NCBI GenBank assembly: GCA_905234755.1
Contig: CAJOIT010000003.1
Span: 479,331 to 543,330 of the forward strand
Direction of reading: 5' to 3'
Source: an uncultured Bacteroidales bacterium
Lineage (GTDB): Bacteria; Bacteroidota; Bacteroidia; Bacteroidales; ML635J-15
DNA: 64,000 nt
Made by a program: the position numbers and the translations under genes. This document shows, one piece after another, positions 53,438-60,047 of the stretch. Numbering within the stretch: the first letter of the stretch is position 1; every line of letters starts with the position of its first letter. Below the pieces are notes generated by a model. It saw only the letters and a list, made by a program, of their open reading frames with translations, was not told where the DNA came from and ran no database searches.

Positions 53438-54496
53438 ATGGCAGGAAATAAAAAATTACGGGAAGCAAATAAAGCCAAAAAGGATGAGTTCTATACTCAA
53501 CTTGTAGATATTGAAAATGAACTAAAGCATTATAAGGAACATTTCAGAGGAAAAACTGTTTTGTGTAACTGCGACGACCCAAGAGTGAGCAACTTTTTCC
53601 ACTATTTTAGCTACAATTTCGAAAAATTGGGATTAAAAAGGCTTATTACAACCTGTTATAAAAATCAAAATCGCGATTTGTTTAGCAACAATGACAGCGA
53701 AAGGGCAATTTGGCTTGAATATTTTGGTGACCGCAATGGTAATCTTGTTCCAGACCCCGAAGAAATTGGAATAAATTATTTCGATGGTGACGGTGATTTC
53801 CGTTCGCAAGAATGTATTGAATTGCTGAAGCAGGCTGATATTGTGGTGACAAATCCACCATTTTCGTTGTTTAGGGAATATGTGGCGCAGTTGATGAAAT
53901 ACGAAAAAAAGTTTGTGATTGTTGGTCATCAAAATGCTATTACATACAAGGAGATTTTTTCTTTAATAAAAGATAACAAGATATGGTTGGGATATGGATT
54001 TAAAGGTGGAGCAGGACATTTTATAAGTAAATACGAAGATACGGCAACAGCAGGAGATCATCGCGAGGGCATGATTCGCGTATCAGGTGTAAATTGGTTT
54101 ACAAATCTTGAAATAAGTAAAAGGTACGAAGATTTGATTCTTTACAAAACATATAACTCAGAAGAATATCCTAAATTTGACTATTATGATGCAATAAATG
54201 TTGACAAGACTTCCGATATTCCTATGGACTATAATGGTATTATGGGGGTTCCGATAACTTTTCTGGATAAATACAATCCAAATCAGTTTGAAATAATTGA
54301 AGGTTTGAATAGATATACTATTCTTGATGTTGATGGAAGAAATGAATGGGCAAGAAAGGAGCATATACATTTTACTACTATTAATGGAAGTCCAAAATAT
54401 TTTAGAATATTGATCCGTCGTCGTACCCAAAGCATACCATACACAATGGAAGAATCGCAAATGTCGATGGCGGCAGAAAAGGGTGTGGAAATTTAA
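53438..54496 (+). CDS. EcoRI-family N6-adenine DNA methyltransferase
   Basis: The N-terminus AKKDEFYTQ...CNCDDPRVSNFF closely recalls M.EcoRI-type enzymes. NPPF catalytic motif (VVTNPPFS). The ATG at 53438 is preferred. Confidence 0.8.
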   Translation: MAGNKKLREANKAKKDEFYTQLVDIENELKHYKEHFRGKTVLCNCDDPRVSNFFHYFSYNFEKLGLKRLITTCYKNQNRDLFSNNDSERAIWLEYFGDRNGNLVPDPEEIGINYFDGDGDFRSQECIELLKQADIVVTNPPFSLFREYVAQLMKYEKKFVIVGHQNAITYKEIFSLIKDNKIWLGYGFKGGAGHFISKYEDTATAGDHREGMIRVSGVNWFTNLEISKRYEDLILYKTYNSEEYPKFDYYDAINVDKTSDIPMDYNGIMGVPITFLDKYNPNQFEIIEGLNRYTILDVDGRNEWARKEHIHFTTINGSPKYFRILIRRRTQSIPYTMEESQMSMAAEKGVEI

Positions 54497-54527
54497 AATG
54501 GTAAATTATATTATTCCCAAAATTGTA

Positions 54528-54586
54528 AAAATAGGAACAATATGATTAAAAATTAACATTGATAACAATAAAATAGGAACAATATG
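54528..54586 (+). repeat. 17-bp exact direct repeat pair AAAATAGGAACAATATG
   Basis: Copies at 54528-54544 and 54570-54586. The second copy supplies the start codon of the DUF262-HNH gene. Confidence 0.8.
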
Positions 54587-55675
54587 CAAATCGAACTACA
54601 CAAAATTTCAGTCCGCGATCTTACAAACGGCTATACCGACAACGCCGAAAAAGGTGTAACCGCATACGGTGGAAAACTGGATGTCCGTCCGCCGTACCAA
54701 CGCGAATTCGTCTATGGAGAAAAACAGCGCAATGCCGTGATTGATACTCTTATGCAAGGTTTTCCTTTAAATGTAATGTACTGGGCAACCCGCGAGGATG
54801 GCACCTACGAAATCATTGACGGTCAACAGCGTACAATCAGCATTTGCCAGTATGTGAGCGGAGATTTTGCCTTCGACATGCGCTATTTCCACAATTTGGA
54901 GAAAGATGAAAGGGAGCAAATTCTAAACTATGAACTGCAAATCTACATTTGCACTGGCACCGACAGCGAAAAACTAAAGTGGTTCAAGACGATAAACATT
55001 GCAGGCGAGAAACTTACCGACCAGGAACTGCGCAACGCTGTGTATGCTGGTTCGTGGGTTAGCGATGCCAAGCGGTATTTCAGCAAGAATGGTGCGCCAG
55101 CTGCTAAAATCGGCAGTGACTATCTTACAGGTTCTGCAATCCGTCAGGAATACCTTGAGACTGCAATATCTTGGATTTCGGACGGAAACATCGAATCGTA
55201 CATGGCTAATCACCAGCACGATGCAAGCGCAGCTCCGCTGTGGCAGTTTTTCCAGTCGGTGATAACTTGGATAGAAAGCACTTTCCGCCCGACCAAGGAA
55301 CGCAAGAAAATAATGAAGGGCGTAAACTGGGGCGCATTGTACAAGCAATACAAAGATCAAGTATTTGATTTCAAAGAAATTGACGAGGAAGTAAAGCGCT
55401 TGGTACTCGACGATGATGTCACCAAGAAGACTGGCATTTATCCATATATTCTTACTCGCAAGGAGAAGTATTTGTCAATTCGCGCATTTACCGATGCCCA
55501 GAAATTGGCCGCTTACGAACGACAGGGTGGTGTTTGCCCAATTTGCGGAGAGCGTTTCGAACTTTCGCAGATGGAAGCCGACCACATAACTCCGTGGCAC
55601 GATGGCGGTCGCACAGTCGCCGAAAACTGCCAGATGCTTTGTCGTACATGCAATAGGGAGAAAAGCGGAAAATAG
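54584..55675 (+). CDS. DUF262 (ParB-like nuclease/NTPase) + C-terminal HNH endonuclease protein
   Basis: 363 aa with PPYQREFVY and IIDGQQRT (DUF262 DGQQR motif). The C-terminal CPICG...DHITPWHDGG...N..MLCRTCNREK is an HNH module. Confidence 0.8.
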   Translation: MQIELHKISVRDLTNGYTDNAEKGVTAYGGKLDVRPPYQREFVYGEKQRNAVIDTLMQGFPLNVMYWATREDGTYEIIDGQQRTISICQYVSGDFAFDMRYFHNLEKDEREQILNYELQIYICTGTDSEKLKWFKTINIAGEKLTDQELRNAVYAGSWVSDAKRYFSKNGAPAAKIGSDYLTGSAIRQEYLETAISWISDGNIESYMANHQHDASAAPLWQFFQSVITWIESTFRPTKERKKIMKGVNWGALYKQYKDQVFDFKEIDEEVKRLVLDDDVTKKTGIYPYILTRKEKYLSIRAFTDAQKLAAYERQGGVCPICGERFELSQMEADHITPWHDGGRTVAENCQMLCRTCNREKSGK

Positions 55676-55684
55676 CTATGTTTC

Positions 55685-55865
55685 ACGTTTCTAGGTTTCT
55701 CGCTTCGCTGTTTCTAAAAAACGCGGTTGTCATGCTGAACTTGTTTCAGTATCTGATTCCGTGTTTTTTTTGTTTCTAAGTTGCCTGTATAGGATAACAG
55801 ACACAAAGGCTTACAGCTTTTGGACTTTTAGCCTTTTCTTCTTTCAGCCTTTTTAGCCTCCCCAA
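55685..55865 (-). repeat. intergenic word-repeat element (modules c and a, inverted)
   Basis: The reverse complement of 55687-55716 is TAGAAACAGCGAAGCGAGAAACCTAGAAAC (compare 27938-27960). 55825-55863 carries GGCTAAAAGGC-type words. Confidence 0.6.
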
Positions 55866-55950
55866 AAACACACCTTCGCTTGTTCGTTTTCTGTTAGTAA
55901 ATGTCCCAAAAATCACTTGCCAATTACATTTAGTGCCGAATTTTATTTTG

Positions 55951-55958
55951 TAAATTTG
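55951..55958 (+). promoter_or_regulatory. TAnnTTTG box (TAAATTTG)
   Basis: 32 nt upstream of the ATG at 55990. Confidence 0.45.
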
Positions 55959-55989
55959 CACAAAAATTTTTCAAAAAGTAATATTTGAT

Positions 55990-57285
55990 ATGGCAACAGC
56001 AAGTGAACTGAAAGTAAAAGTAGCAAAGATTTCGACAATTGTTGAATACCTTGAAGATGAGCAGATAAACCAAATTGAAAAGGACATTTTGCTACAAGCG
56101 GTAAGGGAATTGTACTCGGATATATTGGTTACTGACACAGCAAATACAGTCGTAGAAAACACAAAATCAGAAGAAGAACCAGTTAATGAACAACAAGAAG
56201 CTGTTGAGGAACATGTTGATGAAAATGTCGCAGAAACGGTGGCTGCTGCAGTTGTTCCGCCAGTTATTTCTGTTGCGTTTGATGATGGTGAGTTCGATTT
56301 CTCGGATTTGCTGAAGGATAAAACAACGGAAGAAAATGATGAAGTTCAGGAGACAAATGTTGAAACGGAAATTCCAGTAGAAAATGTCGCTACTGAAGAA
56401 ATGCCAGCAGAAGAAGAAATTCCGGTCGAAGAACCAGAACCCGAAGTAGCAAAAGAGGAACCTGCCACAGAATTTGTTCCAGAAGAAATTGACGAGCAGG
56501 AACCTGAAAGTGTAGAAGAATTTGAGGAGCCGGAACCTGAAAATATTGAAGAAGTCGATTCTATAGAGGAATTTGAAGAAGAGGATGATGACAGCGAAGA
56601 ATTGGAGGAGGCAGAACCAGAAACTTCAGAAGTAGTTGAAGAAGAAGTTCAGGAATCGGAATCAAATTTTGAAGAAACTGTTACTGGCGATACTGAAATA
56701 AACTATAGTTTCAACGAGGATACTTTGCAAGATGAACAACCAACTGTTGAGGAAGAAGAACCACAGATAGAAGAACCTGTCGTAGAAGAAACTCCAGTAG
56801 TTGAAGAAGAGCCAGTCGTTGAGGAAAAGCCAATTGTAGATGAACCTGTTGCAGATGAGCCTCAAGTTGCTGCTGAAATGCCAACCATAGAAGAACCTGC
56901 CGTTGAAACTCCGCAGAATGTTGAAGAAAAGCCAGTTGAGCAAGAAAAAGCAGAACCGGCTCACATAACCTTAGGCGAACAACTTGGACAGTCGCGCCAA
57001 TCATCACTGAATGATAAGTTTGCAAGCAACAAGCCTGCAGAAGGCAGTTATGGTTTGAAACCAATTTCCGATATTAAGTCGGCAATCCCTTTGGGTGAAA
57101 GATTCAGATTCACTCGTATGTTGTTCTCTGGCAACGGACCTGCTTTCGATTCAACCGTGGCAAAACTCAATGAAATGTCAAGCATTGAGGAGGCGGACAA
57201 CTATGTACGCACAAACTTCAGCTGGGACATGGATTCTCCTGTTGTCGCCGACTTTATGAATATTGTTCGCAGAAGATATTTGTAA
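55990..57285 (+). CDS. hypothetical protein with a long acidic E/P/V-rich low-complexity core
   Basis: 431 aa. The N- and C-terminal domains look conserved and flank ~270 aa of EEPVVEE-type sequence. TAnnTTTG at 55951-55958. Confidence 0.65.
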   Translation: MATASELKVKVAKISTIVEYLEDEQINQIEKDILLQAVRELYSDILVTDTANTVVENTKSEEEPVNEQQEAVEEHVDENVAETVAAAVVPPVISVAFDDGEFDFSDLLKDKTTEENDEVQETNVETEIPVENVATEEMPAEEEIPVEEPEPEVAKEEPATEFVPEEIDEQEPESVEEFEEPEPENIEEVDSIEEFEEEDDDSEELEEAEPETSEVVEEEVQESESNFEETVTGDTEINYSFNEDTLQDEQPTVEEEEPQIEEPVVEETPVVEEEPVVEEKPIVDEPVADEPQVAAEMPTIEEPAVETPQNVEEKPVEQEKAEPAHITLGEQLGQSRQSSLNDKFASNKPAEGSYGLKPISDIKSAIPLGERFRFTRMLFSGNGPAFDSTVAKLNEMSSIEEADNYVRTNFSWDMDSPVVADFMNIVRRRYL

Positions 57286-59310: not shown

Positions 59311-59625
59311 ATGAAAAACATTTTGGCTGATATAAGGCAACTTGCGTCAAAGGTTATTCCGACAGGCAGTTCTGCTTTGCTATATGGTTCGCGAGCACGA
59401 GGTTCGGCGCACTCGCATTCCGATTGGGATATTTTGTTGATTCTTGACAAAGATTCGCTTACGCAATCGGACTATGATTCAATAAGTTATCCGTTTGTCT
59501 TGTTGGGTTGCGAATTAGGAGAAGAAATCAATCCGATAATGTACACCGAAAAAGAATGGAAGTCGTATGAGGCTACACCATTTTATGAAAATGTAAAACG
59601 AGATGCAATTAATTTATTGTCATGA
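59311..59625 (+). CDS. nucleotidyltransferase (MNT-type antitoxin-like)
   Basis: 104 aa with LYGSRARGSAHSHSDWDILL (GSxxRG...DxD). TAnnTTTG at 59284-59291. Confidence 0.8.
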   Translation: MKNILADIRQLASKVIPTGSSALLYGSRARGSAHSHSDWDILLILDKDSLTQSDYDSISYPFVLLGCELGEEINPIMYTEKEWKSYEATPFYENVKRDAINLLS

Positions 59626-60047
59626 ATCAAGAAGAAAAAAGATTATTGGTTAAGCGACAAGTTGAAAAGGCATATCATTTTATGAACCAAGCAGATGAAA
59701 TGATCAGTTTGGGACATACGGATTTGGCTGTAAACCGTTTGTATTATGCCTGTTTCCATATAGTACAAGCGTTATTCCTTCAATCTGGAATATCGGTTCG
59801 CACTCATTCAGGAATAATTACCCAGTTTAGTCAGCATTTCGTGAAAACAGGTATGGTGCCTATTGAAAAAGGCAGTTTGTTGGCACGATTATTTCAATTA
59901 AGACAAAAAGCTGACTATAATTGTGCATACGACATTTCTGATGAAGAAGCAAAGTCTTTAATTGCTCCTGTTCATCTTTTTATTGCCGAAATATCAAAAA
60001 TGATAGATAATAAAGTGATAAATGCAGAAAACGAGGAGGATGAATAA
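59622..60047 (+). CDS. HEPN domain protein (MNT partner)
   Basis: 141 aa, all-helical. ATGA overlap with MNT. The last 8 aa (NAENEEDE) are identical to the rsmI C-terminus. Confidence 0.75.
   Translation: MNQEEKRLLVKRQVEKAYHFMNQADEMISLGHTDLAVNRLYYACFHIVQALFLQSGISVRTHSGIITQFSQHFVKTGMVPIEKGSLLARLFQLRQKADYNCAYDISDEEAKSLIAPVHLFIAEISKMIDNKVINAENEEDE

Follow-up and report, generated by a model that had tools for sequence, protein, structure and literature searches.

A predicted mobile restriction-modification module that pairs an EcoRI-family methyltransferase with a DUF262-HNH nuclease, and the structured leader RNA that precedes it in Bacteroidales

In this study, we analysed a 64,000-nucleotide stretch of DNA from an uncultured Bacteroidales bacterium (GenBank assembly GCA_905234755.1, contig CAJOIT010000003.1, positions 479,331 to 543,330 of the forward strand), referred to below as the window. 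We concluded that positions 53438-55675 of the window are probably a mobile two-gene restriction-modification (R-M) module, in which a DNA methyltransferase (MTase, or M) of the EcoRI family protects host DNA and a DUF262-HNH nuclease (R) restricts. The two genes are a conserved unit and no chance juxtaposition, as shown by their linkage in genomes, viral contigs, plasmids and metagenomes. The pair is already catalogued in defence databases, and it is of a biochemically undescribed kind.

The two genes and their linkage

The features of the gene pair are as follows, all on the forward (+) strand.

53438..54496, +: EcoRI-family (PF13651) N6-adenine DNA methyltransferase, 352 amino acids (aa) from ATG, called from the open reading frame (ORF) and Pfam
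53852-53863, +: NPPF catalytic motif of the MTase, aa 139-142
54528-54544 and 54570-54586, +: 17-nt exact direct repeat AAAATAGGAACAATATG in the M-R spacer, copies 42 nt apart
54584..55675, +: DUF262 (GmrSD_N, ParB/Srx-like)-HNH nuclease, 363 aa, predicted restriction subunit
54683-55045, +: DUF262 domain of the nuclease, with DGQQR at 54818-54832
55535-55666, +: HNH domain of the nuclease with a Cys4-type zinc ribbon

An earlier description of this DNA (the original prediction) had proposed a 352-aa MTase followed by a 363-aa DUF262-HNH nuclease, and both ORFs were recovered with every motif it quoted: DEFYTQ (aa 16-21), CNCDDPRVSNFF (aa 43-54) and NPPF (aa 139-142) in the MTase; PPYQREF (aa 36-42) and DGQQR (aa 79-83, within IIDGQQR at aa 77-83, which is invariant across the family) in the N-terminal part of the nuclease; and CPICG (aa 318-322), DHITPWHDGG (aa 333-342) and CRTCN (aa 353-357) in its C-terminal part. 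In Pfam, the MTase matched PF13651 (EcoRI_methylase) over nearly the whole profile (E=2.5e-137), and the nuclease matched PF03235 (GmrSD_N/DUF262) at aa 34-154 (E=3.6e-21) and PF01844 (HNH) at aa 318-361 (E=2.4e-14). The C-terminus of the nuclease also matched PF14279, another HNH profile, and carries a CxxC...CxxC zinc ribbon. No Pfam match to DUF1524 (PF07510) was found in the nuclease. All family-invariant nuclease residues are kept (P36, Q39, R40, D79-R83, C318, C321, D333, H334, N348, C353 and N357).

The start of the MTase was placed at 53438 because a start-proximal hairpin of the leader RNA described below ends 1 nt before that ATG, and a longer form starting from TTG at 53408 is unlikely. 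The last ~65 codons of the MTase (54300-54496) had no DNA-level similarity to 79 of 80 related loci, and many distant MTase protein alignments ended at about aa 287; the variable C-terminus is possibly part of a target-recognition domain. The spacer between the genes, given before as 88 nt, measures 87 nt. It is not conserved elsewhere, its length ranging among other loci from overlap to more than 1 kb. The second AAAATAGGAACAATATG copy in it ends in the nuclease ATG and the first opens a 4-codon mini-ORF (MIKN*); a duplication of the initiation region at this locus is the probable origin of the repeat.

Linkage of the two genes was followed in samples reached by different routes. The genome sample comprised 80 loci reached via the nuclease (78-88% identity), from rumen and gut Bacteroidales and one Fibrobacter; a same-strand MTase homologue lay directly upstream of the nuclease in 77 of the 80, and the other three start at a contig end, giving 77/77 testable loci. 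In the best 80 of 267 IMG/VR viral contigs (52-71% identity), the MTase was upstream in 77 and directly downstream in one, with no room for it in two, so that the genes were adjacent in 78/78 testable viral loci. A second nuclease clade of 387-aa proteins, about 38% identical, had the MTase abutting the nuclease in 5/5 places, in unrelated surroundings that included an integrase, GmrSD, an MmeI-like enzyme and toxin-antitoxin genes. Both genes were present in all seven plasmid or phage records inspected (Chryseobacterium, Aeromonas, Gordonia, Ligilactobacillus, Enterococcus, Apilactobacillus and Flavobacterium phage laban6-1), and the 7.5-kb Ligilactobacillus plasmid has no genes besides rep, a MerR-family regulator and the M-R pair. 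In a protein-blind sample, consisting of metagenome loci picked by the upstream RNA pattern alone, no complete MTase followed by at least 1.1 kb was without the nuclease. The linked pair was found across at least five phyla, and the family is large, with more than 8000 relatives in a 90%-identity collection and 518 clusters at 50% identity (E<=1e-30). Co-occurrence, which the original prediction had named as a check, thus came out with the MTase adjoining the nuclease in essentially all testable loci.

The junctions and the divergence of the genes point the same way. The M stop and R start codons overlap or abut in many lineages, identity at long range falls in step (MTase 40-66%, nuclease 38-67%), and a neighbour-joining MTase tree (17 sequences, no support values) recovers both nuclease clades. 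One predicted metagenomic protein of 688 aa (P0278) fuses PF13651, GmrSD_N and HNH; it is a Rosetta-stone case, single of its kind, and could be a gene-calling artefact. Median pairwise identity among the first 80 loci was 85% for the nuclease and 67% for the MTase. A reading of the nuclease as far more conserved than the MTase was rejected as partly a matter of sampling, since the values were 64% and 55% in the protein-blind sample and divergence was equal at long range.

A difference in base composition between the genes had also been suspected, and it is real: the MTase has a G+C content (GC) of 0.347 and the nuclease one of 0.469, against 0.426 for the window. It is, however, family-wide. 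Nuclease GC exceeded MTase GC in 73/73 related loci, by a mean of 11.6 points, and GC at third codon positions across the 73 loci was 0.63 for the nuclease and 0.39 for the MTase. The offset is therefore a family trait and no sign of separate acquisition in this genome. As a side observation, the correlation with GC of the flanking genome is stronger for the nuclease (r=0.65) than for the MTase (r=0.35).

The two proteins also match existing defence models. The nuclease matched PADLOC PDLC03418 (REase_II, "Type II restriction enzyme") with residues 1-363 on profile positions 1-372 of 372 (E=1.6e-138), and the MTase matched PDLC03297 (MTase_II; E=7e-122), so a standard defence-finder would already call the locus Type II R-M. 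The original prediction had suggested a possibly atypical type II-like R-M pair; the R-M-like pairing is supported, and it is not new to the databases. NCBIfam held no model for either protein and PHROGs no dedicated family, and the names given in public sources are only "DUF262 domain-containing protein", "HNH endonuclease", "GmrSD ... domain-containing" and "McrA". PDLC03418 was presumably built from REBASE sequences. R.HpyAXII, considered as the enzyme behind it, was the wrong candidate, as it belongs to the PabI glycosylase family.

Proposed mechanism and competing accounts

Comparison with characterised systems gives the framework for a mechanism. Identity between the MTase and authentic M.EcoRI is 50.9% (tblastn) to 54% (alignment), both proteins belonging to PF13651, and the M.EcoRI reference (WP_002670781.1) adjoins the "type-2 restriction enzyme EcoRI". 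Both systems are two-gene, plasmid-borne, mobile modules. They differ in the partner, which is a DUF262-HNH protein here and the unrelated PD-(D/E)XK EcoRI fold in EcoRI, and in gene order, which is M then R here and R then M in EcoRI; no ORF for an EcoRI-type restriction endonuclease (REase) was found in 52000-56000. In the neighbour-joining tree, EcoRI-type MTases (L088, L089 and L091) form one branch between two DUF262-HNH-linked MTase clades, and the classical pairing with an EcoRI-type enzyme may be derived and in the minority, an offshoot of a larger DUF262-HNH-linked family.

With GmrSD, BrxU and SspE, the nuclease has in common a DUF262 domain at the N-terminus, including the nucleotide-pocket motif DGQQR, and a His-Me-finger nuclease at the C-terminus. 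In contrast to these enzymes, it has a PF01844 HNH domain with a zinc ribbon instead of PF07510/DUF1524, and it is ~200-400 aa shorter. Moreover, the GmrSD family is stand-alone, whereas the nuclease here is always encoded with a PF13651 MTase, and this constant cognate MTase implies that the DNA restricted is unmodified, not modified. HNH-type Type II enzymes with zinc ribbons include KpnI, Hpy99I and PacI. These resemble the present nuclease in the beta-beta-alpha-Me core with CxxC...CxxC/H and in having, mostly, an adenine or cytosine MTase as protective partner; we know of none in this group with a ParB/Srx-like DUF262 NTPase module.

Considering these likenesses, we propose that the MTase, an EcoRI-family enzyme of the gamma class of N6-adenine methyltransferases, would mark the host's own DNA with N6-methyladenine (m6A), and that the zinc-ribbon HNH domain would cut DNA without the partner's mark. 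By analogy with GmrSD, BrxU and SspE, the DUF262 domain (ParB/Srx-like, DGQQR) would most likely bind or hydrolyse a nucleotide and couple substrate sensing to cleavage, with the opposite polarity towards modification. Because its DGQQR pocket is conserved, the nuclease could depend on a nucleoside triphosphate (NTP), which would be atypical for Type II; it may be an NTP-switched restriction enzyme that senses when m6A is missing. The genes would be co-transcribed in the order M then R and translationally coupled in most lineages, and in this Bacteroidales lineage the shared ~260-nt leader probably throttles or times expression of the operon. The reading of the pair as Type II-like R-M is supported by the linkage, the matching clades, the coupled junctions, carriage on plasmids and phages, the fusion protein and the PADLOC models.

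As to the recognition sequence, a site containing AATT is conceivable, because of the MTase's identity to M.EcoRI. The observed/expected ratio of GAATTC was 0.87 in the window and 0.77 in the 80 loci, which is no notable avoidance; avoidance of a site says little in either direction. In the window, ACGT, GGCC and GATC are strongly avoided (observed/expected 0.15-0.17), and CATATG is the most avoided 6-mer, at 0.16 in the window and 0.20 in the 80 related loci; these ratios were taken without control genomes.

Several points weigh against restriction by this pair. To our knowledge, every characterised DUF262 nuclease (GmrSD, BrxU, SspE) is modification-dependent or modification-sensing and none is modification-blocked. 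Neither AATT nor GAATTC is notably avoided in the window or in the 80 related loci, so no site can be inferred from them. The "Type II" status of the nuclease derives from a database label, and our literature search yielded no enzyme behind PDLC03418. The search likewise found no paper or experiment characterising the MTase and DUF262-HNH pair. The structure model of the nuclease is mediocre (predicted local distance difference test, pLDDT, 65), with residues 134-216, the middle third, unresolved, which leaves the DNA-recognition region undefined. Finally, on one Chryseobacterium taklimakanense plasmid (NZ_CP034172.1, L082:3056-3906), the MTase is frameshifted near codon 237 next to an intact nuclease; if this is not a sequencing error, it speaks against strict lethality.

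A fold search with the same model gave no match at E<=0.001. Its weak matches go no further than the Pfam domain calls: the N-terminal part resembled ParB/Noc CTPase domains, sulfiredoxin, BrxU (7p9k) and SspE (6jiv), and the C-terminal part resembled HNH domains of Cas9 or Gme. A sequence search of solved structures matched the nuclease over the HNH domain only and left the MTase unmatched.

Among other accounts of the pair, service to a mobile element survives best, although we consider it distinctly unlikely. The genes would then act as an addiction module for plasmids or prophages, or as a phage packaging or competitor-exclusion set, in keeping with their presence on very small plasmids with little else, beside toxin-antitoxin genes and on 267 viral contigs. 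Among the known helpers of terminase are HNH proteins. Phage loci in which ParB and an MTase adjoin the terminase have moreover been described and linked to packaging (PMC4738411). However, the pair in phage laban6-1 is not adjacent to the terminase, most copies are chromosomal and lie in defence islands beside other R-M systems, and addiction, being a known side-effect of Type II R-M, does not exclude restriction.

We find it scarcely credible that the nuclease instead depends on its partner's methylation, in a two-step, Type IV-like scheme in which the MTase marks, for example, invading or single-stranded DNA and the DUF262-HNH protein cuts what is marked. Such cutting would fit the usual reading function of DUF262 domains and the position of the MTase gene as first in the operon. 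Nevertheless, with an MTase expressed constitutively alongside the nuclease, the host chromosome would itself be marked and the system would be suicidal; around the plasmid, phage and second-clade loci there is no conserved third component that could discriminate, and PADLOC files the nuclease family with classical Type II REases.

Equally improbable is the alternative left by the original prediction, that of independent side-by-side modules: a stand-alone Type IV DUF262 nuclease and an orphan adenine methylase in a defence island would suit the reviews, which place the DUF262 enzymes characterised to date among Type IV or modification-sensing nucleases, the 12 GC points between the genes and the adjoining candidate defence system PDC-M13, but this is refuted by co-occurrence across phyla, plasmids and phages (77/77 genome and 78/78 viral loci), by overlapping start and stop codons, by co-divergence of the clades and by the fusion protein P0278, with the GC offset shared by all 73 loci.

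The leader RNA and its cargo

DNA homology between the window and the related loci runs from about 53130-53155 to 55675-55679, and so includes ~290 nt before the MTase. This upstream part contains a structured leader with the following features, all on the forward (+) strand.

53177-53437, +: whole leader, ~260 nt, comprising a rod-like RNA, a terminator-like hairpin and a start-codon hairpin
53177..53191, +: conserved 5' block GCATTAGCTATTATT, left edge of the conserved module, nearly invariant in the alignment
53188..53372, +: rod-like structured RNA core (covariance model R1, 163 bits)
53188-53199/53361-53372, +: helix P1
53206-53216/53346-53356, +: helix P2
about 53274-53286/53330-53343, +: helix P4, ~15 bp, which forms in 153/153 distinct copies
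53297-53306/53311-53320, +: hairpin P5
53373..53397, +: terminator-like hairpin (GAAAGGT/GCCTTTC) followed by a T run, in nearly all aligned copies
53404..53436, +: start-proximal hairpin GTGATTGATAG-(11 nt)-CTATCGGTCAC, -12.9 kcal/mol, with two G-U pairs

The leader folds with a minimum free energy of -82.4 kcal/mol (z=-7.5 against shuffled sequence), and the internal loops of its core are conserved. In 71 of the 80 genome loci, the covariance model R1, built from 31 leader copies, recovered the element at full length and in the orientation of the gene. In this set, 95.7% of cells were paired, 30 of 35 pairs had compensatory changes and double-change cells numbered 356, against 96±8 in shuffles, while partners slid by 1-3 columns paired in 33-48% of cells. 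An independent replicate came from the metagenome loci, where R1 matched 98 of the first 100 loci picked by the 5'-edge pattern, with 94.6% of cells paired, compensatory changes in 35/35 pairs, 423 double changes against 100±9 and slid controls at about 40%. The alignments were fitted to the model, which favours structure, and the margin is very large. On the cargo strand, G-U pairs outnumber A-C mismatches by 334:92, which points to RNA on that strand.

The terminator-like hairpin covaries as well (helices 5-6 of the covariance model). The start-proximal hairpin ends 1 nt before the MTase ATG in the window and 2-6 nt before the start codon elsewhere, with every cargo type, and its variant arms GGATAATGG/CTGTTATCC keep the pairing. 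The 5' block may serve as promoter or operator, or the leader transcript may begin in it. It could base-pair with the start-proximal hairpin, to whose 5' arm and loop it is complementary, and so possibly act as an anti-sequestor, although covariation for this pairing is weak. A scan for sigma-70 promoters gave counts at shuffle level, and its consensus is inapplicable to Bacteroidota. Rfam 15 (4227 families) gave no match at E<=1 to the leader region of the window or to eight further copies. Some candidate elements were discarded: an anti-terminator pairing of the P1 3' strand with the terminator loop was seen in the window and, on inspection, was not conserved in other loci, and hairpins P2a and P3 were no more stable than shuffled sequence.

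The 21-nt 5'-edge pattern occurs once in the window (0 expected), at least 120 times in rumen and gut metagenome contigs and not once in viral contigs. The leader was not found with the 80 viral copies, the plasmid copies or the distant-clade copies of the pair, and it also precedes other cargo; the idea that it is an intrinsic part of the M-R module was therefore rejected. Among 120 metagenome loci examined, it precedes a PF13651 MTase in 80. Other R-M cargo behind it comprises Type I hsdM-hsdS-hsdR, a Type ISP enzyme and a C5 MTase with a HaeIII-type REase, joined by an N6_N4 MTase and a 769-aa NPPF protein with an Mrr-like nuclease. Outside R-M, the leader is followed by a glycosyltransferase, a sulfatase-family protein, DUF2334, a trypsin-like peptidase, DUF3990 (in loci L136 and L205) and, among surface genes, a pair consisting of a lipoprotein and an outer-membrane beta-barrel. 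The leader is thus lineage-specific and placed by Bacteroidales before many acquired genes, most often R-M systems. A tRNA gene (L132:2347-2420) lies ~140 nt upstream of the leader copy preceding the glycosyltransferase, a hint that some leader-cargo units sit at tRNA-linked insertion sites.

Like known R-M regulatory leaders (C-protein operators and EcoRI antisense RNAs) and riboswitch or attenuator leaders, the element is found in cis, ahead of the first gene, and its terminator-like hairpin followed by a start-codon hairpin has the layout of a riboswitch or attenuator expression platform. Unlike C-protein systems, this locus has no controller-protein gene, and unlike known R-M leaders, the element is a ~200-nt rod-like RNA common to unrelated R-M types and some surface genes. 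We suggest that the leader, as a rod-like domain with conserved internal loops, an intrinsic terminator and a hairpin that would sequester the start codon, may gate expression of its cargo by way of some factor or ligand, for instance while the cargo becomes established in a new host.

The conserved upstream element could also be a DNA-level feature with no functional RNA, such as an invertible promoter between inverted repeats, a miniature inverted-repeat transposable element or a recombination site for cargo exchange. The cargo (R-M systems, glycosyltransferase, lipoproteins and outer-membrane proteins) resembles the phase-variable classes of Bacteroidales, the outer stems of the leader are inverted repeats, upstream flank and downstream cargo both vary, as at a cassette junction, and one locus has a truncated and a full leader copy around a DUF3791/DUF3990 insert. 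Nevertheless, the internal orientation with respect to the cargo is constant in about 170 leader copies, the leader is single-copy per locus and per 64-kb window, and the nested inner helices P4 and P5 covary, beyond the ends. The excess of G-U over A-C on the cargo strand and the conservation of a terminator-like hairpin together with a hairpin at fixed distance from the start codon argue for RNA as well. A DNA-level element is therefore an unlikely explanation, if a less remote one than any rival account of the gene pair.

Neighbouring genes and significance of the module

The remaining features near the module are as follows.

52234-53146, +: DUF3791, DUF3990 and a 74-aa ORF, matching PADLOC PDC-M13 A/B/C with E down to 8e-40
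55990-57285, +: 431-aa ORF, very acidic, rich in Glu, Pro and Val, repetitive, with no Pfam match
59311-60047, +: two small overlapping ORFs of 104 and 141 aa, noted by eye

The PDC-M13 trio lies directly upstream of the R-M module and also precedes it in about 6 of 80 related loci; no leader remnant was found upstream of the window's own DUF3791 and DUF3990 genes. The 431-aa acidic ORF follows directly on the module and is not part of the conserved unit. By eye, the 104- and 141-aa ORFs look like a toxin-antitoxin-type pair of nucleotidyltransferase and HEPN proteins.

Considering the results for the genes and the leader together, we regard it as evenly balanced whether the full picture holds, in which the leader represents a new class of cis-regulatory RNA gating acquired R-M and surface genes, the nuclease is NTP-switched and the EcoRI pair is an offshoot of the DUF262-HNH-linked family. 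In the sample seen, the MTase family to which M.EcoRI belongs has a ParB-like/HNH nuclease as its partner at least as often as an EcoRI-type enzyme. Characterising the nuclease would add an architecture to the Type II repertoire, with a possible new specificity or an NTP-gated restriction enzyme, and it would test the DUF262 module, a reader of modified DNA, at the opposite polarity. Furthermore, if the gating role is true, the leader would be a testable handle on how R-M systems are expressed safely on entering a new cell, and it would also inform the question of how genes gained by horizontal transfer are controlled in Bacteroidales.

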